From positions 1,440 through 65,439 of the forward strand of contig JBKPDO010000166.1 of the NCBI GenBank assembly GCA_046727955.1: a stretch of 64,000 nucleotides of DNA, in the 5' to 3' direction. Every line of letters starts with the position of its first letter. Within the stretch, counting starts at the first letter, position 1. Made by a program: the position numbers and the translations under genes. Positions 20,091 through 29,499 of this stretch are shown here, piece after piece. Origin of the DNA: a bacterium (lineage in GTDB: Bacteria; Actinomycetota; CALGFH01). The notes under the pieces were generated by a model that was not told the DNA's origin, did not search any database, and was given only the letters and a program-made list of their open reading frames with translations.

Positions 20091-23000
20091 ATGACCTCGC
20101 CGGTCGACTTCCTGCTCCTCGGGCCGCTCGAGGCGCGCCAGGCCGGCCGCCCCCTGCGGCTCGGCAGCATCAAGCACCGCATGCTGCTGGCCAAGCTGCT
20201 GGTGCACGCAAACCAGGTCGTCTCCACCGACGAGCTGATCGACACCGTCTGGGGCGACCAGCCCCCGCCGACCGTTCGGCAGTCGCTGCAGAACCACGTC
20301 GCCTCGCTCCGCAGGGCGATCGAGCCCGGCAGCGTCGCCAACCCACCCCGAACGCTGCGCACCCGCGACCCCGGCTACCTGCTGCAGGTCGATCCGGACC
20401 AGCTCGACCTGCACCGCTTCCGCCGGCTGCTCGACGAGGGCCGCGGCGCGCTCGATTCCGGCGAGCCGGCCACGGCGGTGCGGCTGCTGCACGAGGCCCT
20501 GTCGCTGTGGCGCGGCCCGGTCCTGGCCGACGTCGTGGCCGCCGGGGCGGCCTGGCCCGAGCTGGTCGGCATCGACGAGGAGCGGGTCGCGGCGCTCGAG
20601 GTGCGGCTCGAGGCCGACCTCACCCTCGGGCGTCACCCCGATCTGATCGGCGAGCTAGAGGGCCTGGTCCAGGTGCACCCGCTGCGCGAGCACCTGCACG
20701 GGCAGCTCATGCTCGCGCTGTACCGCTCTGGCAGACAGGCGGACGCGCTGGCCGCCTACCGGGCCGCCCGCCGCATCCTCGTCGACGAGCTCGGCATCGA
20801 GCCGAGCCTGCGCCTGCAGCGGCTGGAGCAGGCGATCCTCGCCCAGGACCCGGCGCTCGAGCTGCTCGGCCCGTCCGCGGCCGAGGCCGAGCCCGGGATC
20901 CTGGCGCTCGACCGGGCTGCGGCCGGCGAGCCCGCCAGGGCGGCCGCGCCCGGCGGGGCCGAGCGCAAGCTGGTCACCGTGCTGTTCGCCGAGGTCGACG
21001 AGCCGGCTGCCGAGCCAGGCGAGCGCGACCCCGAGGACGTCTCCAGCATGCTCGAGCGGCATCTCGAGCGGATGCACACCGAGATCTTCAGCTTCGGCGG
21101 GGTGGTAGAGCACGCCATCGGCGGCACCATGATGGCCGTCTTCGGCGTGCCACAGACCCGCGAGGACGACCCCGAGCGCGCCGTGCGCGCGGCGCTGGCC
21201 ATCCGCGACGCGCTGAGCGGCCGGGCGGAGCTGCGCATCGCGGTCGGCACCGGCGAGGCGCTCGTCACCCCTGGCGGCGGGCCCACGCGGGTCGCCGGCG
21301 ACCTGGTCACCGCCTGCGCCCGCCTGCAGCAGGCCGCCCCCGCCGGCGCGGTGCTGGTCGCGGAGGCGACCGAGCGCGCCACTTCGCGGACGATCAGCTA
21401 CGGGCCGGCGACCATGCTCGTGCTGCCCGGCCGCGCCAAGCCCGTGACCGTGTGGAGCGCGCTGGAACCGCGCAACCGCACCGGGCTCGAGACGCTCGCC
21501 GCCCGCCCGGTGCCGCTGATGGGACGGGCACGGGAGCTCGGCGCCCTGCTAGAGGCGTTCGAGCGGGTCCGGTCCACCGGCAGCCCGCGGCTGGTGACCC
21601 TGGTCGGACCGGCGGGCATCGGCAAGAGCCGCCTGCTGGCGGAGCTGTGGCAGTCGCTGGAGGCCGACCGCGACCTGGTCGCCTGGCGCCAGGGCCGCTC
21701 GCCGCCCTACGGCGAGGGGATCACCTTCTGGGCGCTCGGCGAGATCATCAAGGCAGAGGCCGGCATCCTCGAGAGCGACACCACCGACCGCATCGACCGC
21801 AAGCTCGCGCAGGCGGCCAGCTACGCCCTGGCAGGGATCCCGGACGCGGCCGCCTGGGTCACCGCGCACCTGCGCGTGCTGCTCGGCGGCAGCGACGAGC
21901 GCTCGCAGCCGCGGGCGGGCCGCCAAGAGGAGGCGTTCGCCGCCTGGCGGCGCTTCCTGCACGGCCTGGCCACCCGCCGTCCGCTGGTGCTGGTCGTCGA
22001 GGACCTGCACTGGGCCGACGACGCCCTGCTGGAGTTCCTCCAGAGCCTGCTCGACGGCGCCGGCAGCCCGCCCGGCTCACTGCCGCTGCTGCTGGCCACG
22101 ACCACGCGGCCGGAGCTGCTGGAGCGCCGGCCCGGCTGGGGCGGCAGCGGCCCGTCGACCACCATCAGCCTCGAGCCACTGCCGCGGGACGACACCGTCC
22201 GCCTACTCGGGGCACTGCTCACCCACCACCGGCTGCCCGGCGCGGTCGCGCCCCGCCTGGCCGCCGCGGCGGGCGGCAACCCGCTGTTCGCCGAGGAGTA
22301 CGTGCGCATGCTGCGCGACCGCGGGCTGCGCACCGAGGAGCTGAAAAACGCGGCGGCGGGCGAGCCGCCGGCGATGGGGGCGCCCGAGCTGCCGCTGCCG
22401 GAGACCGTGCACGCGATCGTCGCCGCCCGCCTGGACGCGCTCTCCGTGGCCCAGAAGGCGGTGCTGCACGACGCCGCCGTCCTCGGCCGGATCGCCTGGA
22501 CAGGTGGCCTGGCGGCCGTGGGTGACCACGACCGCGACAGTCTGCAGGCCTGCCTCGACCACCTCGAGGCCAAGGAGTTCCTCTACCGGGCACGCCGCTC
22601 CTCGGTGGCCGGAGAGCCGGAGTACGGCTTCCGGCACGTGCTCATCCGCGACGTGGCCTACGGCCAGATCCCGCGGGCGCAGCGGGCCGACAAGCACCGC
22701 CGGGCCGCGGCCTGGCTCGAGTCGCTGTCAGCCGACCGCGTCGAGGAGCGGTCCGAGCGGCGCGGGGCCGCCCGCGCGGAGCTGCTGGCCCACCACTACG
22801 GCAGGGCGCTCGCCTTCGCTCACGCCTCGGGTCAGCCCAGTGACGAGCTGGCCACGCACACCCGCCTGGCGCTGCGCGACGCCGCCGACAGGGTGACCGC
22901 GCTTGGCGTGCATGCCACCGCCGCCCGCTACTACGCCCGCGCCCTCGAGCTGTGGCCGGAGCGCGACCCCGGCCACGCCGAGCTCGAGTTCCGCACCGGC

Positions 23001-24242
23001 CGCGCCCTCTACCACAGCGAGGGCAGCGGGGAGAAGCTGCTCGCACGAGCGCGCGACGGGCTGCTTGCCGCCGGCGACTTCGAGCGCGCGGCCGAAGCCG
23101 ATATCCTGCTCGGCCAGCACGCCTGGGAGCACGGCCAGCACGGCGCGGGCGATCACGTCGAGCGGGCCGTGGCCCTGGTAAAGGACGCGCCGGCATCGCG
23201 CTCCAAGGCCGCGGTGCTGCGCGGCCGCATGATGCACTCGATGGTCGCCGAGCACCACACCGAGGCGATCGCGCTCGCCCGTCAGCTCCTGGAGATGGCG
23301 GTCCAGCTCGGCATGCTGGACATCGAGGCCGCCGCGCTGGAGGTGATCGGCGGCGCCAAGGTGCTCGGCAGCGGCGATCCCAGCGGGGTGGCCGACCTGG
23401 AGCGCAGCATTGCCATCTACGAGCAGCTCCCCTCCCTCAACCCGGCCGGCGCGTACATCAACCTGGCCGAGATGCTTGCGGCGCTCGGCGACCTGCCGCG
23501 CTGCTTCGCCACCTGGGCAGCCGCCTGGCGGTGCGTAGAGCGCTTCAGCGTCGAGCACCGGCTGCGCTGGATGGAGTTCGAGCGCGTGGCCGAGCACTAC
23601 TGGACCGGGCGCTGGGACGAGGCGCTGCGCAAGGTCGAGTCGCTGGTCGCCGAGTCGGCGGCCGCGCGCGGGCACGTCCTGGAGTGCCGCTGCCTCATCT
23701 GGCGCGGCCGTATCCGCCTGGCCCGCGGCGAGACATCGATGGCCGTGGCCGACTCGGTCGCCGCGCTCGAGCTGGCCCGGGCTTCCGGTGAGCCGCAGGA
23801 CCTGGACCCCGCGCTGGCTTTCGGCGCCCGCGCCCTGCTCGCCGCCGACCGGGCCGAGGACGCCGTCCCGCTGGTCGACGAGCTGGTGAAGGTCGTGGAC
23901 GGGCGGCTGCTCAAGGCGACAGTCGGCAGCGACCTGTCGCTTGCGCTGGTCGCCCTGAACTATCCGGTCGAGGCCCTGGACGGCGTGCTGCCGTCACGCT
24001 GGCTGGAGGCCGCTCGCGCTCTGCTGGCCGGCGACATGCGGCGGGCGGCTCAGCTCTATGCCGCCATCGGCTCGCGCCCGGACGCGGCCGCGGCCCACCT
24101 GGCCGCCGCGCGCCAGCTGACGGCCGCGCGCGAGGCCGGTGCCAGCAGGTCAGAGCTGGCCGCCGCCCTCGGCTTCTACCGCGAGGTCCGCGCGAGCGCC
24201 TATCTCCAAGAGGCCGAGGACCTGCTGTTCTCCCTGGTCTGA
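20091..24242 (+). CDS. SARP (wHTH-BTAD) + cyclase-like + AAA/STAND ATPase + TPR regulator
   Basis: LLGPLEA, LREHLHGQLMLALYRSGRQADAL, ERKLVTVLFAE, GPAGIGKSRL, VVEDLHWAD, TPR-like helical tail. Confidence 0.92.
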   Translation: MTSPVDFLLLGPLEARQAGRPLRLGSIKHRMLLAKLLVHANQVVSTDELIDTVWGDQPPPTVRQSLQNHVASLRRAIEPGSVANPPRTLRTRDPGYLLQVDPDQLDLHRFRRLLDEGRGALDSGEPATAVRLLHEALSLWRGPVLADVVAAGAAWPELVGIDEERVAALEVRLEADLTLGRHPDLIGELEGLVQVHPLREHLHGQLMLALYRSGRQADALAAYRAARRILVDELGIEPSLRLQRLEQAILAQDPALELLGPSAAEAEPGILALDRAAAGEPARAAAPGGAERKLVTVLFAEVDEPAAEPGERDPEDVSSMLERHLERMHTEIFSFGGVVEHAIGGTMMAVFGVPQTREDDPERAVRAALAIRDALSGRAELRIAVGTGEALVTPGGGPTRVAGDLVTACARLQQAAPAGAVLVAEATERATSRTISYGPATMLVLPGRAKPVTVWSALEPRNRTGLETLAARPVPLMGRARELGALLEAFERVRSTGSPRLVTLVGPAGIGKSRLLAELWQSLEADRDLVAWRQGRSPPYGEGITFWALGEIIKAEAGILESDTTDRIDRKLAQAASYALAGIPDAAAWVTAHLRVLLGGSDERSQPRAGRQEEAFAAWRRFLHGLATRRPLVLVVEDLHWADDALLEFLQSLLDGAGSPPGSLPLLLATTTRPELLERRPGWGGSGPSTTISLEPLPRDDTVRLLGALLTHHRLPGAVAPRLAAAAGGNPLFAEEYVRMLRDRGLRTEELKNAAAGEPPAMGAPELPLPETVHAIVAARLDALSVAQKAVLHDAAVLGRIAWTGGLAAVGDHDRDSLQACLDHLEAKEFLYRARRSSVAGEPEYGFRHVLIRDVAYGQIPRAQRADKHRRAAAWLESLSADRVEERSERRGAARAELLAHHYGRALAFAHASGQPSDELATHTRLALRDAADRVTALGVHATAARYYARALELWPERDPGHAELEFRTGRALYHSEGSGEKLLARARDGLLAAGDFERAAEADILLGQHAWEHGQHGAGDHVERAVALVKDAPASRSKAAVLRGRMMHSMVAEHHTEAIALARQLLEMAVQLGMLDIEAAALEVIGGAKVLGSGDPSGVADLERSIAIYEQLPSLNPAGAYINLAEMLAALGDLPRCFATWAAAWRCVERFSVEHRLRWMEFERVAEHYWTGRWDEALRKVESLVAESAAARGHVLECRCLIWRGRIRLARGETSMAVADSVAALELARASGEPQDLDPALAFGARALLAADRAEDAVPLVDELVKVVDGRLLKATVGSDLSLALVALNYPVEALDGVLPSRWLEAARALLAGDMRRAAQLYAAIGSRPDAAAAHLAAARQLTAAREAGASRSELAAALGFYREVRASAYLQEAEDLLFSLV

Positions 24243-24243
24243 G

Positions 24244-24385
24244 GGCTTGTTTGCATTCGGGGGGGAGCCCGAGACAGCTCCCCCCCGAACCCCCCACCGG
24301 GCACCTCGACGTGACCCCTGGGTCGGGGGTCAGCACCGCGATCGGGCAGGGTCGCCGTGCCGCGGATCACCATTGCAACCAGGCC
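24244..24385. mobile_element. MITE-like element, copy A (one internal unit)
   Basis: Ends ggcttgtttgca...tgcaaccaggcc; body closely similar to 42062-42367; inserted at the SARP stop codon. Confidence 0.75.
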
Positions 24386-24559
24386 CCGAGGCGTGCGCTG
24401 CCTCGCGCCGTCGCCAGAGCCAGTCCGCTTGAGGCCCAGATGGGGGACATTGCGTAGGTAGTTCTTGCGAGGTGCACTCAGGACCCATGGGGAGTACAAC
24501 TGGCTGAGAGAGATCGATACCACTCTCTTGTCGAACCGGTCAGAGGAAGGCTGGACCAT

Positions 24560-25126
24560 ATGCCTGAGACGCCTCGCGAACGGCTTCTCGAGACGGCCAC
24601 GAACCTCCTGTACAGGGAGGGCATCCAGACCGTCGGGATCAACCGTATCGTCGCCGAGGCGGAGGTGGCGCTCATGACCCTCTACCGCCAGTTCGGGGAC
24701 AAGGACAACCTGGTCGCCGCTGCGCTCGAGCACTGGAGCACGCAGTGGCTGCACTGGCTCGCCGACCACGTCGACCGCCGCGGCGACGATCCCGAGGCCC
24801 GCTTCGCTGGCCTGTGGGACGCGCTCGAGGAGTGGTTCACGAGCGAGGGCTTCCGCGGCTCCTTCATCGCCAGCGCCGCTGTCGAGCTGCGCGGCGAGCC
24901 GGAGCACCCCGCACACCGAGTGATCGAGGGACATCGGCTGGCAATGCGGCACCTGCTGGAGGATCTCGCCAAGGCCGCCGGGGCGCGCGACCCGGACGAG
25001 CTGGCGACCCATCTGCAGGTGATCGTCGACGGCGCCACCTCTGTCGCCATGGTCGACCGCACGCCCACCCCCGCTCGCAATGCGCGCGCGCTGGCCGGCG
25101 CGGCGCTGGCGGTGAGCGCCAGCTAG
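24560..25126 (+). CDS. TetR/AcrR family regulator (NemR/ComR-like)
   Basis: RERLLETATNLLYREGIQTVGINRIVAEAEVALMTLYRQFGDKDNL. Confidence 0.93.
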   Translation: MPETPRERLLETATNLLYREGIQTVGINRIVAEAEVALMTLYRQFGDKDNLVAAALEHWSTQWLHWLADHVDRRGDDPEARFAGLWDALEEWFTSEGFRGSFIASAAVELRGEPEHPAHRVIEGHRLAMRHLLEDLAKAAGARDPDELATHLQVIVDGATSVAMVDRTPTPARNARALAGAALAVSAS

Positions 25127-25563
25127 CGCCGGCCAGCGTGGCGGCCGCCCTCGCTGCTGGCCGACAGCGCCACCAGCGTCAGGTGCCGAGCGATGCGCGC
25201 CACCGCCGGCTGGCGGTCGATCAGCGCGCCGACCACGGCGCCCTCGTAGAGCACCTGGAGCTGGCTGGCCAGCGTGGCGGGATCGTGCACACCCGCCGAG
25301 CTGGCAAGGCCCTCGAGCAGGTGCCGCAGCGAGCGGCGCTGCTCGGCCACGGCCTGGTGGGCCGGATCGGCGGCGTCGCGCAGCTCTGGCGCGGCGCCCG
25401 CCAGGAACGACCCGTCGAAGTCGTCGCTGGCGAACCATTCCTCGAGCACGTCCCAAAGGGCGAGCAGGCGCTCCGTGGGCGTGTCACCGCGGCGGTCGAG
25501 CTCCTCGGCGAGCCACTCGGGCCAGTCCCCACGGGTGGGCTCCTCTACCTCGTCTCGTCTCAC
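25123..25563 (-). CDS. TetR C-terminal-domain-only protein (no HTH), paralog of the adjacent TetR
   Basis: RBS aaggggagagg + GTG; WLAEELDRRGD/LWDVLEEWF/LASQLQVL align with the TetR C-domain; stops overlap at CTAG. Confidence 0.8.
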   Translation of the reverse strand: MRRDEVEEPTRGDWPEWLAEELDRRGDTPTERLLALWDVLEEWFASDDFDGSFLAGAAPELRDAADPAHQAVAEQRRSLRHLLEGLASSAGVHDPATLASQLQVLYEGAVVGALIDRQPAVARIARHLTLVALSASSEGGRHAGRR

Positions 25564-25753
25564 CCTCTCCCCTTGGGCCGATGAGTCGGTAGGAGCCGGG
25601 CGGTCCCAGCAAATCTGTCAAGGCTCGCTTCATCGTCGTATTCCAGGAGCGTCGGCGCAAGACCGTACAGCCGAACAGATGACTCAGAGACCGGCACCGG
25701 CGCCCAAGTGGGGATAGTTTCCCGAAATTTTGCTTCCACGTCATGAAATACTC

Positions 25754-25784
25754 TTGACAGATGATAGAGAGAGATCGCTATCAT
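25754..25784 (+). promoter_or_regulatory. Promoter TTGACA-19-TATCAT with palindrome atgatag-N10-ctatcat
   Basis: Read directly, upstream of the small ORF at 25837. Confidence 0.7.
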
Positions 25785-25836
25785 TACCCATTCGCGCCGG
25801 CTGGGAGACCGGCGGTGGAGGAAAGGGAGGCCCCCC

Positions 25837-25959
25837 ATGCGCGACTCCAAGCACTGGCCCATCCGCTTCGTGCGGTACGCGTACCTGACGGTGATTTCCA
25901 TGGGCGCCGCCGCGCTCCTGGTCGCGGGCTTCAGCCAGCCCAACTGGATGTGGTGGTGA
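25837..25959 (+). CDS. Unannotated 40-aa single-TM peptide (MRDSKHWPIRFVRYAYLTVISMGAAALLVAGFSQPNWMWW)
   Basis: Strong RBS ggaggaaagggagg, own promoter, GC3-rich codons; below the ORF-track cutoff. Confidence 0.7.
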   Translation: MRDSKHWPIRFVRYAYLTVISMGAAALLVAGFSQPNWMWW

Positions 25960-26062
25960 CATCCGGCCATCTTGAAGTCCGAGGTGGCGGCCCCAACGGG
26001 CCGCCACTCGGCGTTCCGGCCCATCCGCCCACGCTCCCGGCCCATCCGCCCACGGTGACCCG

Positions 26063-26133
26063 CGAAGACCTCCCTTGAGCACGTCCCTCGAAGACCTCCC
26101 CCTCGAAGACCTCCCCCTCGAAGACCTCCCCCT
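26063..26133. repeat. Tandem repeat 15 bp x3 (cgaagacctccccct) plus one degenerate copy
   Basis: Read directly; upstream of the second STAND gene. Confidence 0.9.
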
Positions 26134-26214
26134 GGCTGGACCGACGACCTAGGCTTGTAGGCTGCAAGGGCTGCAAGCCACGTCCGCCGCAGAAGCTGTC
26201 ACCGAGGGACGCAA

Positions 26215-29200
26215 TTGGCCGATCCCCAACCGCCCGGCGAACAGCCGAGCCACGCCGAGCGCAAGCTCGTCACCGTGCTGCTCGCCGAGGTCGACGAGGC
26301 GGCCGGGAGCTGGGACGAGCCCGACCCCGAGGACGTCGACTGGGCGCTCACCGGGCACGCCGCTCGGGTCCATGACCAGGTCCGTCGCTTTGGCGGCGTG
26401 GTCGAGCACCGGCTCGGCGGCCGCACCCTGGCGGTGTTCGGGCTGCCGCGGACCCGCGAAGACGACCCCGCGCGGGCGGTGCTGGCCGCGCTTGCGATCC
26501 GCGACGCCCTCGGCGGCCCCGCCGGCGCCGCGCGGCCGCGCCTGGCGGTCTCGACCGGCATGGCGCTGGTACGGCTCGGCGGGCAGGTCCCCAGCGGCCA
26601 GCGCGTGCTCGGCGATCCCATCGCTATCTGCGCGCGCCTGCTCGAGGTGGCCCCGCCGGGCGCCGTGCTGGTGACCGAGCCGACCCTGCGCGCCAGTGAG
26701 CGCGCCATCCCCTACGGCCCGGCCAGCCTGGTGACCCTTCGCGGCGGGGAGCCACAGGCGGTGTGGAGCCCGCTCGCCATCTCGCCGCCCGGCCAACGCC
26801 GCTTCCCGCCGCTGGTGGCCCGGGACGCCGAGCTGGCCATTCTGGTCGAGCGGCTGGCGCAGGCGCGCTCGGCCCGCTCGCCGCGGCTGGTGACCCTGCT
26901 CGGGGCGGCGGGCATGGGCAAGAGCCGCCTGCTGGCCGAGCTGGCGGCGGCCGTCCAGGGCGGCCCCGAGCTGGTCGCCTGGCGCCAGGGTCGCTCTTCT
27001 CCGTACGGCGCGATGGCGCTCGGACCGCTCGCCGAGGTCGTCAAGGCCGAGGCCGGGATCCTCGAAAGCGACAGCGCCCAGGAGGTGGAGCGCAAGCTGC
27101 TCGCCACCGCCGAGCGGGTGCTGGACGGTCATAGCGCGGACGTAGGCCGCACCGCCACCCACCTGCTCACGCTAGTTGGGGCCAGCGCGGCGGGCAGCGA
27201 CACGGCCCAGGTTCAGCTGGACGACGGCGACCGCCGCGAGGAGATGCTCGCGGCCTGGCGCCGCTTTCTCTATGCCCTGGCGGTCAGGCGCCCCCTGGTG
27301 CTCGCGATCGAGGACGCCCACTGGGCCGGCGACGCGCTGCTCGACTTCCTCGAGAGCCTGGTCGACCCGGAGATCGCGGCGCAGGCGGGCCCGACGGCGC
27401 TGCTGGTGGTCGTCACCGCCCGACCGGAGCTGGCCGAGCGCCGGGCTGGCTGGGGGCTTGCCGAGAAAGGCGTCGGCAGCGTGGTCCGGCTCGAGCCGCT
27501 GCCCCCCTCCGCCATCGCCGGGCTGCTGGCGGCCCTGCTGGAGCACCATGGCCTGAGCGGGCGAGGGCGGACCGCCCCGGAACTGCTCGAGCGGGTCGGC
27601 GGCAATCCGCTGTTTGCCGAGGAGTACGTGCGCATGCTGCGCGACCGCGGGCTGCGCACCGAGGAGCTGAAAAACGCGGTCGCGGGCGAGCCGCCGGCGA
27701 TGGGGGCGCCCGAGCTGCCGCTGCCGGAGACCGTGCACGCGATCATCGCCGCCCGCCTGGACGCGCTGCCATCTGACGAGAAGGCGGTGCTGCAGGACGC
27801 GGCCGTCCTCGGCCAGGTCGGCTGGGTGGGCGCGCTGGCCGAGATCGGCGAGCGCGAGCGCGCCACCCTTCAGGCGCGGCTGCTGCGGCTGGAGAGCAGG
27901 GAGCTGCTGCAGGTGAGCGACCGCTCCCAGGTCGCCGGCGAGGTCGAGTACGCCTTCCGCAACGTGCTGGTGCGGGACGTGGCCTACGACCAGACCCTCC
28001 GCGCCGACCGGGCACGCAAGCATCTCAAGGTGGCGACCTGGCTGGAGCGGCTCGGCGGCGACCGCGCTGGCGAGCGTGCCGACCTGCTCGCCTATCACTA
28101 CCGCGCCGCACTGGACCTGGGCCGCGCGGCCGGGCTCCAGGTGCCTGGCCTCCAGCTGCGGGCCAGGGCCGCGCTGCGCGAGGCCGGCGACCGCGCCGCC
28201 GCCCTTGGTCTGCACGCAAGTGCCGCCCGCGCCTACACCGAGGCGGTGGGGCTGTGCGCGCCCGATCCCAGAGATCCCGAGCGGCCCGCCCTGCTGCTGC
28301 GGCTCGGCCGGGCTCGCTGCCGCGCCGAGGGCGCCGGCGAGGAGGAGCTGAGCGCCGCGCGGGACCTGTTCCTCGCCAGGGACGAGCCGGTGCCCGCTGC
28401 GGAGGCCGAGATGCTCCTCGGCGAGCTGGCGTTCCTCGGCGGGCGCGGCGACGAGCGCGCGGCGCGGCTGGATCGCGCGCTTGCGCTGATCGGCGGCGCG
28501 GCGCCATCGCCCACCAAGGCCGCGGTGCTGCGCGGCTGCATGTTCCACCTCGCCATGGCCAACCGGCACGCTGAGGCGCGGGCGGTGGCGGCCGAGGTCC
28601 TCGAGCTGGCGCGCCAGCTCGGCCTGCGGGACTTCGAGGCGGACGCGCTCGGGACCATCGGGCTGGCGCGGGTCGACGCCGGCGACCCAGGCGGTGTGGC
28701 CGACCTGTCGGCCGCTATCGCCGCCTTCGACGCGCTCGGCACGTCCGGATCGGTCGCCTGGCACCTGAATCTGGCCTATGCGCTGGCTGCGCTGGGCGAC
28801 CTCGCCGGCTGCCACGCCGAGCTGGCGGCGGCCGCGCGCGGCGCCGAGCGCTTCGGCCTGCTGCGCGCCGCCCGCGCGATCAGGCTCCAGCGGGTCGCGG
28901 AGTACTACTGGACCGGTCGCTGGGACGAGGCGGTCGCGGTGGTCGACGTGTTGGTGGCCGGCTCGCCCGGGGAGGAGCGCCACTACCTGGAATGGGAGTG
29001 CCGGCTGTGGCGGGGCCGCATCCGCCTGGCCCGCGGCGACCTGGACGGGGCGCTGGCCGATTCGGTGAGGGCTCTGGAGCTTGCGCGCCGCGCGGCCGAC
29101 CTGATGGCGCTCAACCCCGCCCTTGCCTTCCGGACGAGCGTCCTGCTTGCCGCGGGCCAGGTGCCGGAGGCTCGCGAGGCGGTCGCCGAGCTGCTGGCGA

Positions 29201-29499
29201 GCCTGGGCGGCAGCGTGCTGGCGCCGGAGATCGGCGCCGACCTGGGCAATGCCCTGGCAGCCCTGGGTCTGGGGACCGAGGTGCTCGATGAACGCGGCAT
29301 CCCGCCGTCGCCCTGGCTGGAGGCGACCAGGGCACTGGCCAGCGGCAGGCCGGACCGCGCCGCCGAGCTGTACGACCGCATCGGGGCTGTCCCCGAGGCA
29401 GCCACTGCGTGGAGAGGCGGGGGGACTCCGAACCGCGGAGGGACCCAGGCCCCCCCGCGAACCCCCCCAGGGGGGGCGGGCTCTGCCCGCGATTCCTAG
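26215..29499 (+). CDS. Cyclase-like + AAA/STAND ATPase + TPR protein, paralog lacking the SARP head
   Basis: ERKLVTVLLAE, GAAGMGKSRL, IEDAHWAG, GNPLFAEE; C-terminus runs into a G/C-rich repeat. Confidence 0.88.
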   Translation: MADPQPPGEQPSHAERKLVTVLLAEVDEAAGSWDEPDPEDVDWALTGHAARVHDQVRRFGGVVEHRLGGRTLAVFGLPRTREDDPARAVLAALAIRDALGGPAGAARPRLAVSTGMALVRLGGQVPSGQRVLGDPIAICARLLEVAPPGAVLVTEPTLRASERAIPYGPASLVTLRGGEPQAVWSPLAISPPGQRRFPPLVARDAELAILVERLAQARSARSPRLVTLLGAAGMGKSRLLAELAAAVQGGPELVAWRQGRSSPYGAMALGPLAEVVKAEAGILESDSAQEVERKLLATAERVLDGHSADVGRTATHLLTLVGASAAGSDTAQVQLDDGDRREEMLAAWRRFLYALAVRRPLVLAIEDAHWAGDALLDFLESLVDPEIAAQAGPTALLVVVTARPELAERRAGWGLAEKGVGSVVRLEPLPPSAIAGLLAALLEHHGLSGRGRTAPELLERVGGNPLFAEEYVRMLRDRGLRTEELKNAVAGEPPAMGAPELPLPETVHAIIAARLDALPSDEKAVLQDAAVLGQVGWVGALAEIGERERATLQARLLRLESRELLQVSDRSQVAGEVEYAFRNVLVRDVAYDQTLRADRARKHLKVATWLERLGGDRAGERADLLAYHYRAALDLGRAAGLQVPGLQLRARAALREAGDRAAALGLHASAARAYTEAVGLCAPDPRDPERPALLLRLGRARCRAEGAGEEELSAARDLFLARDEPVPAAEAEMLLGELAFLGGRGDERAARLDRALALIGGAAPSPTKAAVLRGCMFHLAMANRHAEARAVAAEVLELARQLGLRDFEADALGTIGLARVDAGDPGGVADLSAAIAAFDALGTSGSVAWHLNLAYALAALGDLAGCHAELAAAARGAERFGLLRAARAIRLQRVAEYYWTGRWDEAVAVVDVLVAGSPGEERHYLEWECRLWRGRIRLARGDLDGALADSVRALELARRAADLMALNPALAFRTSVLLAAGQVPEAREAVAELLASLGGSVLAPEIGADLGNALAALGLGTEVLDERGIPPSPWLEATRALASGRPDRAAELYDRIGAVPEAATAWRGGGTPNRGGTQAPPRTPPGGAGSARDS

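Follow-up and report, generated by a model that had tools for sequence, protein, structure and literature searches.

A TetR-family regulator gene and its convergent paralog lacking the DNA-binding domain in soil Actinomycetota: a possible headless partner subunit

The A/B gene pair

The locus described here lies in a 64,000-nt stretch (the window; GC content 71.5%) of contig JBKPDO010000166.1 (assembly GCA_046727955.1), from a bacterium of the Actinomycetota. It contains a gene for a TetR/AcrR-family regulator, designated A, and facing it on the opposite strand a shorter open reading frame (ORF), designated B, which encodes a paralog of A without the DNA-binding helix-turn-helix (HTH). B is an old, maintained gene, and it may, on a reading we favour only tentatively, supply a headless subunit that tunes or poisons A by heterodimerisation. 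Comparison loci are designated by L-numbers. The features of the pair are as follows.

24560-25126, plus strand: A, TetR/AcrR-family regulator, 188 aa, ATG start, with HTH and C-terminal domain
25123-25563, minus strand: B, a 146-aa paralog of A without the HTH, GTG start
25123-25126, both strands: CTAG lying in both convergent stop codons, read from the sequence
25564-25574, minus strand: Shine-Dalgarno-like (SD-like) stretch AAGGGGAGAGG adjoining the GTG of B, read from the sequence

A previous sequence-only reading of this DNA had described an intact frame for B and two TAG stops that overlap in one CTAG; both ORFs were confirmed, and the stops, at 25124-25126 for A and at the complement of 25123-25125 for B, do overlap as described. 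The same reading had credited B with a strong ribosome-binding site (RBS) of its own. An SD-like site is present, and its GGAGAGGGTG is retained in the close relatives L030 and L035, but "strong" is generous for a GGAG core placed 3 nt from the GTG. GC content at codon positions 1, 2 and 3 of B (0.83, 0.51 and 0.90) resembles that of A and of the neighbouring genes. A is annotated at source as "AcrR family transcriptional regulator" and has orthologs at about 60 loci (61-89% identity); relatives of B are almost all annotated as "hypothetical protein".

Domain content and predicted fold of B

The two proteins were aligned with BLASTP over 125 aa at 51% identity (E=8e-40), residues 63-187 of A matching residues 14-137 of B, so that, as previously described, the alignment runs along the whole ligand/dimerisation domain and the DNA-binding head is absent from B. 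In Pfam, TetR_N (PF00440) was matched by A at 40.4 bits and was without a match in B, and TetR_C_13 was matched by B at 31.3 bits (gathering cut-off 27). Among 41 aligned members of the B family, TetR_N was matched by none, and TetR_C models, TetR_C_31 included, by all 41. The nearest NCBIfam models of A and B alike are of DicD/YjdC type, with scores far under the model cut-offs. B is by definition not a TetR regulator, having no HTH, and it is clearly a homolog of the TetR C-terminal domain.

In the window, all three frames 5' of B are free of any HTH remnant. For 70 distinct B genes, the 450 nt preceding the start were translated in six frames and searched with an HTH profile derived from A; the best match had E=1.3 and 3.6 bits, against at least 34 bits for every A protein. 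An N-terminal peptide "MRENVITSQEELVT" that can be read upstream of some B genes was rejected as an HTH relic or extension; it is operator/promoter DNA (ATAATGAGAGAGAACGTTCTCACTAGTCAAG) read in frame.

An AlphaFold2 model of B, built from a 41-sequence alignment, is a six-helix bundle (residues 11-25, 29-45, 48-61, 67-89, 95-116 and 121-143) with a mean predicted local distance difference test score (pLDDT) of 82.5 and a predicted TM-score of 0.76; its soft spot is residues 51-70. Foldseek comparison of the model with the PDB returned full-length TetRs only, namely 3jsj, 3g7r, NemR (4yze), PA2196 and YxaF (1sgm), at TMq 0.6-0.73 (0.65-0.73 for 3g7r, 3jsj, 4yze and 1sgm), and at sequence level the only PDB matches were 3jsj and 3g7r, both from Streptomyces. 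On this model B corresponds to the second half of alpha4 through alpha9 of a TetR.

Distribution, age and selection

When B was used as a protein query, the matches were about 60 sequences 131-157 aa long (52-81% identity) and a few full-length TetRs. Public assemblies yielded 108 loci, in which TetR-like units were sorted by presence or absence of an HTH, and these contain 62 non-redundant convergent A/B pairs. The GTDB representative genomes that carry the family are all from uncultured Actinomycetes or are metagenome-assembled genomes of Actinomycetota, and the pairs belong to uncultured soil Actinomycetes. The family is small: an exhaustive profile search gave 23 representatives (50%-identity clusters) at E <=1e-30, and among the best 150, the more distant matches were for the most part TetRs of full length, with some short proteins that may be incomplete.

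The stop codons of A and B lie at most 461 nt apart in 60 of the 62 pairs and 2.4 kb apart in the other two (L060 and L074). A 4-nt stop overlap like that of the window occurs in 14 pairs; in the remaining pairs, the two distant ones apart, 0-461 nt separate the stops. The wide spacing of L060 and L074 corresponds to an insertion of about 2.4 kb between the genes; a further locus, L061, has one of about 1.9 kb, and there the contig ends within B.

About 70 distinct B sequences with intact frames, spanning 40-99% identity, were recovered, and none of the 73 distinct B match regions used for alignment contains an in-frame stop. The dN/dS ratio of B, taken over 29 phylogenetically independent close pairs, has a median of 0.31 and a maximum of 0.84, all values being below 1. 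For the window against its four nearest relatives, L030, L004, L031 and L035, it is 0.26-0.35, with upper bounds of the bootstrap 95% confidence intervals of at most 0.62, and the C-domain of A over the same columns gives 0.18-0.30. Close pairs only were used; at large divergence values of 0.5-0.8 are obtained for A and B, where dS by NG86 saturates (GC3 about 0.9). The 62 pairs and the dN/dS near 0.3 show that B is a real, maintained protein-coding gene, and they exclude the two outcomes that the sequence-only reading had named against its own proposal, a lack of orthologous pairs and neutral evolution.

In a neighbour-joining tree of the common C-domain, the A clade excludes every B (bootstrap 187/200), and the identity between A and B is 48% within a locus and 47% across loci. 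The duplication is therefore old, and neither a renewed duplication nor gene conversion has occurred recently. Support for B as monophyletic relative to proteobacterial and verrucomicrobial outgroups is weak (bootstrap 43/200), and a single loss of the HTH is favoured by parsimony and by the absence of any HTH-bearing B.

TetRs of the A clade were also seen in a second conserved context: in L072, L077/L080 and L103, genes about 64% identical to A occur with neither B nor the flanking regulators bigA and bigB described below, and are divergent from a regulator of HTH_31 + DUF5753 (Xre) type. A 124-aa ORF convergent with the singleton A-type gene of L103 was considered as a B and rejected as not B-like.

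Conservation by helix and the GSF motif

Conservation was expressed as the mean frequency of the commonest residue per column, by helix.

alpha4: A 0.76, B 0.72
alpha5: A 0.75, B 0.77
alpha5-alpha6 turn, alpha6 and alpha6-alpha7 loop: A 0.83, B 0.66
alpha8: A 0.80, B 0.80
alpha9: A 0.35, B 0.66

In TetR structures, alpha8 and alpha9 form the four-helix bundle of the dimer, and alpha6 overlies the DNA-binding domain and lines the pocket. In alpha8, A and B have the same residue at 10 of the 22 columns, each of them conserved within either family; alpha9 of B carries a conserved ARxARELTxIAL motif, and alpha4 and alpha5 of B are also strongly conserved (W..WL..E..RR and LWDVLEEWFAS.DF). The stretch comprising alpha6 and the following loop is near-invariant in A (FRGSF...ELRxEPxHPxH) and varies among B subclades; in the B model this region has a low pLDDT of 56-68. 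With alpha8 and alpha9 conserved and alpha6 and its loop relaxed, B has retained the parts for dimerisation and has relaxed those that A appears to use for sensing or head contact.

At the alpha5-alpha6 turn, the RGSF motif is invariant among A orthologs (G100, S101, F102); B has DGSF in the window, and the residues vary in other B subclades. The nearest solved relatives have QGC (3jsj) and RGC (3g7r) at this position, which bears out the earlier remark that A and B read (R/D)GSF where RGC would be usual. In NemR the Cys of the RGC motif is the redox/electrophile sensor. The Ser that takes its place in both proteins argues against thiol sensing of the NemR type, which would not be expected of A or B.

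Operator-like sites and upstream regions

The non-coding features around the pair are as follows.

24506-24527, plus strand: GAGAGAGATCGATACCACTCTC, an operator-like element at -54 to -33 relative to the ATG of A
25754-25784, plus strand: promoter-like TTGACA (25754-25759) and TATCAT (25779-25784), pointing away from B
25596-25664, minus strand: conserved block upstream of B, with a AATACGAGGATGAGG-like core and TTTGC(T/A)G cores invariant in a seven-lineage alignment

The 64 kb contain two copies, and no more, of the 17-mer GAGAGAGATCGNTANCA (24506-24522 and 25767-25783; 0.04 expected), the first lying 38-54 nt before the ATG of A. Of 58 non-redundant loci searched by regular expression, 52 have a GAGA-N5-12-TCTC palindrome between -70 and -50 relative to A (0.035 expected per locus); a generic best-16-mer comparison of the upstream regions of A and B was underpowered, exceeding shuffles at 8 of 57 loci. 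The second 17-mer copy is contained in a palindrome, GATAGAGA-GAGA-TCGCTATC (25763-25782), that sits between TTGACA and TATCAT, and relatives show an equal layout of -35 element, palindrome and -10 element, for example TTGACT-TAGAGATAACGATCTC-TATCAT in L001. A sigma-70 consensus scan of 24200-26300 reported no promoter; it missed TTGACA/TATCAT because their spacer is 19 nt in the window, against 16 nt in relatives. The simplest reading of this arrangement, going by position and conservation, is that A is an autoregulated repressor that also acts on the 25754-25784 promoter.

Just before the operator of A, at 24439-24500, lie the blocks ATGGGGGACATTGCGTA..GTAGTTCT.GCGAGGTGC and GGAGTACAAC, which recur in L004, L030, L031 and L035, and in part also in L013, L016, L018 and L037, and which may be promoter elements of A. 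Beside the second palindrome, at 25690-25745, is a short hairpin or palindrome whose arms vary by lineage yet stay complementary (GTTTC..GAAAC in L004 and L035, ATTTCAT..ATGAAAT in L031, TCTCA..TGAGA in L037); near it a terminator scan placed a stem-loop at 25709-25724 (TGGGGATAGTTTCCCG plus a T-run). Either element may be another protein-binding site or belong to a long leader of B. The scan found no terminator-like site between A and B.

The block at 25596-25664 is non-coding, since its reading frame differs among loci. It could be the promoter of B or the site of another regulator, and the possession of its own conserved upstream block suggests that the level of B is probably set independently. 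CGAG motifs about 11 nt apart within the block resemble SARP direct-repeat boxes. A riboswitch or structured leader upstream of B was considered and is unsupported: the RNAalifold consensus is weak (-12.6 kcal/mol), and Rfam gave no match at E <=1 across 24000-26500.

Flanking genes

Three further genes belong to the conserved neighbourhood.

20091-24242, plus strand: bigA, upstream of A, a 1383-aa SARP-type STAND regulator with Pfam Trans_reg_C, BTAD, a cyclase-like domain, AAA_16 and a TPR-like tail
25837-25959, plus strand: gene for a 40-aa peptide with a single transmembrane (TM) segment, MRDSKHWPIRF...NWMWW (MRDSKHWPIRFVRYAYLTVISMGAAALLVAGFSQPNWMWW), an ORF with a strong RBS, GGAGGAAAGGGAGG
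26215-29499, plus strand: bigB, a 1094-aa paralog of bigA without the first 286 residues of bigA

Residues 287-1335 of bigA align with residues 11-1065 of bigB over 1077 aa at 52% identity, and neither Trans_reg_C nor BTAD was matched in bigB by Pfam; what bigB lacks is precisely the SARP-type DNA-binding part of bigA. bigA is syntenic with the pair in all long loci, the difference in size and domain content between bigA and bigB recurs in every one of them (L004, L007, L010, L012 and L013), and B is always located between the two. The locus is thus one conserved four-gene block holding two pairs, each of one member with a DNA-binding domain (DBD) and one without, at similar divergence (51% and 52%). 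Within the two large genes, a 300-nt stretch (22272-22571 in bigA, 27598-27897 in bigB) is 84% identical and encodes a near-identical run of 57 aa (GGNPLFAEEYVRMLRDRGLRTEELKNA...AARLDAL), other repeat segments being 71-76% identical and one 50-nt stretch 94%; the 300-nt stretch could be a local gene conversion or a strongly constrained common surface.

The peptide gene is the first after the operator-bearing promoter and is followed by bigB; its GC3 is 0.975. Its family (SKHW...TM...W.W[GH]), which corresponds to no Pfam family, was found at 35 loci, always near A/B and behind the operator-bearing promoter. In L010-L012, L058 and L083 two genes are inserted between that promoter and the SKHW peptide gene (e.g. 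L012 1391-3827), one for a 253-254-aa secreted protein with mature N-terminus HAEKK... and one for a CopC-CopD fusion of about 550 aa. The CopC-CopD insertions hint that the module relates to copper handling in those organisms. The 254-aa secreted protein of L012 was suspected to be YcnI-like; it had no Pfam match, and no claim is made. Between the peptide gene and bigB lie a perfect tandem repeat of 3.3 copies of the 15-nt CCCTCGAAGACCTCC (26085-26133) and two perfect copies of GGCTGCAAG (26160-26177), and GGCCCATCCGCCCACG occurs twice at about 26019-26055.

Proposed mechanism and alternatives

From the features above we infer that A binds the palindromes, that A and B heterodimerise, and in which direction B would act. 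A dimer of A would repress at the GAGA...TCTC palindrome at two sites, one in front of its own gene and one in the -35/-10 interval of the promoter directed toward the peptide gene and bigB. B, expressed from its own upstream region, would pair with A through alpha8 and alpha9 to give one-headed A:B dimers, which would be unable to hold a two-fold symmetric operator; the ratio of B to A would then set how far these promoters are shut off, B being a dominant-negative or titrating subunit. We hold this to be the leading explanation, with a confidence that stops somewhat short of an even chance. The sequence-only reading had offered two roles for B, a dominant-negative anti-repressor and a ligand sink. 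The first fits the alpha8 that B has kept, with its 10 columns identical to A, and its alpha9. The second speaks less well to the data: with alpha6 and the alpha6-alpha7 loop relaxed relative to A, B is probably blind to the signal of A and so would not be a sink for it.

Several observations weigh against a headless partner of A. In the C-domain, identity between A and B is only about 48%, and classes of the Tet repressor that are about 60% identical can be incompatible in dimerisation. The ARxARELTxIAL motif of alpha9 is specific to B and could equally serve a B homodimer or another partner. The assignment of the palindromes to A draws on position and conservation only. In L007-L009, B and both large regulators are kept and the adjacent A is absent, its place being taken by an operator/promoter (GAGAGATAGCGATCTCTATCAT) and the SKHW peptide gene (L007 4448-4811); the operator is still present there, so that a protein of the A type may be supplied from another locus. 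L086 shows the opposite case, an intact A beside a B of which 38 aa are left. The description of B as "dedicated" is accordingly made uncertain by L007-L009.

Four other explanations were weighed, and are taken here in descending order of our confidence. B might function by itself, as a homodimer that binds a small molecule (as buffer, carrier or sink), changes the free level of the inducer of A or of another metabolite and does not touch A. The conservation of alpha4, alpha5, alpha8 and alpha9 is consistent with an intact core or pocket and a self-interface, and in L007-L009 B is retained with no A beside it; yet the near-invariant RGSF...ELRxEPxHPxH region of A is the most relaxed part of B, so that a sink for the same ligand is unlikely, and the tight pairing with A in 62 lineages would be left unexplained. 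We regard this stand-alone role as unlikely, and we think slightly less well of another, in which B serves as an adaptor to some protein besides A (bigA, bigB or the SKHW peptide) and uses its C-domain as a protein-binding module in the manner of SlmA with FtsZ. An adaptor would suit the constant position of B between bigA and bigB and near the SKHW peptide gene, the conservation of alpha9 in B that is absent from A, the second DBD-plus/DBD-less pair at the locus, and the presence of SlmA-type TetR folds among the structural matches. Against it, the helices common to A and B are those of the TetR dimer, and an alpha8-alpha8 contact is the simpler assumption.

It is very improbable that the pair acts mainly in cis, by convergent overlapping transcription (antisense or collision) with the B protein secondary. 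All 62 pairs are convergent, the window and 13 others have the 4-nt overlap, and the genes are without an intervening terminator-like site, but the overlap is not conserved across the remaining pairs, whose stops lie 0-461 nt or, in L060 and L074, 2.4 kb apart. The antisense control that had been suggested from the overlap in the window therefore does not generalise, and purifying selection on the amino-acid sequence of B would be unexpected if transcription alone mattered. Least credible of all is that B is a decaying truncated TetR or belongs to a split gene with its HTH half encoded separately close by. B does lack the defining domain of its family and is annotated as a hypothetical protein, and L086 shows that it can be lost; its frame is nonetheless intact in about 70 sequences of 40-99% identity, with dN/dS near 0.3 and a GC3 of 0.90, and its start region and upstream block are conserved. 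A split gene is further opposed by the lack of any HTH-only ORF within the locus flanks, where the HTH query matched A units only.

Extending the headless-partner reading of B to the whole block, one old duplication could have copied both the TetR and the SARP-STAND regulator, after which one copy of each lost its DBD: B would titrate A, A would gate bigB through the 25754-25784 operator, and bigB would co-assemble with bigA and modulate it. We think this two-tier "shadow regulator" module unlikely as a whole. If true, it would be a cascade of decoy subunits steering two unrelated regulator families, and the second DBD-less pair suggests that DBD loss may be a recurrent form of regulator wiring in these Actinomycetes.

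Comparison with known systems

TetR-family proteins, which rank with the most abundant bacterial one-component regulators and are a workhorse of synthetic biology, are treated as self-contained homodimers. A full-text literature search, of incomplete coverage, found no description of a natural HTH-less TetR partner, and a headless partner of the B type seems to be undescribed. Whatever its action, some 60 "hypothetical proteins" of soil metagenomes gain a family assignment.

The relatives nearest in sequence and fold are the NemR, YjdC (DicD) and LmrA/YxaF-like TetRs (TetR_C_13), the nearest solved ones being 3jsj (SAV143) and 3g7r (SCO4454); all are full-length and have a Cys in (Q/R)GC, whereas A and B have Ser. 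In arrangement the pair recalls SinI/SinR of Bacillus subtilis, where a small adjacent gene encodes the oligomerisation helices of the repressor only and the heterodimer blocks DNA binding. SinI consists of two helices in 57 aa and SinR is an Xre-type tetramer, whereas B is a full six-helix TetR C-domain that could still bind a ligand.

Within the TetR family and the same phylum, the full-length paralogs ScbR/ScbR2 and AvaR1/AvaR2 of Streptomyces form heterodimers alongside homodimers (PMC5744401); there both partners have an HTH and the heterodimer binds DNA, whereas an A:B dimer would have one head. Mce3R of Mycobacterium tuberculosis has a double TetR motif that forms an asymmetric pseudo-heterodimer of diverged units (PMC11667970), which unlike A and B are fused, both carry a DBD and act at a non-palindromic site.

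Among DBD-less antagonists, TrlR of the LuxR family in Agrobacterium tumefaciens forms inactive heterodimers with full-length TraR (as summarised in PMC11655674). Like B, TrlR keeps the ligand/dimerisation domain and has lost the DBD; it differs in that the autoinducer domain of LuxR proteins is N-terminal and their DBD C-terminal, and in that TrlR was truncated recently and still has 88% identity to TraR, where A and B have 51% and the DBD was lost long ago. The DBD-less antagonist paralog of the CerN/CerM pair in Cereibacter sphaeroides belongs, like B, to an old and diverged pair (31% identity; PMC11655674). FleT of Cereibacter (Rhodobacter) sphaeroides, a DBD-less homolog of FleQ, joins hetero-oligomers with FleQ and alters its affinity for DNA (PMC11655674); these are AAA+ enhancer-binding proteins, the effect is cooperative and not purely inhibitory, and they are the closer analogue of bigA/bigB.

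The interaction of the TrlR type is reported, whereas that of A with B is put forward here from sequence. What B has in common with TrlR, SinI and CerN is homology to the oligomerisation domain of a partner without its DBD, together with linkage to that partner's gene (62 pairs, with exceptions in L007-L009 and L086). If B does act on A in this way, it would offer a natural dominant-negative part for TetR-type switches and would add to the TetR family a protein-level layer of control, by subunit poisoning or titration, that has so far been documented for the LuxR, SinR and FleQ systems.

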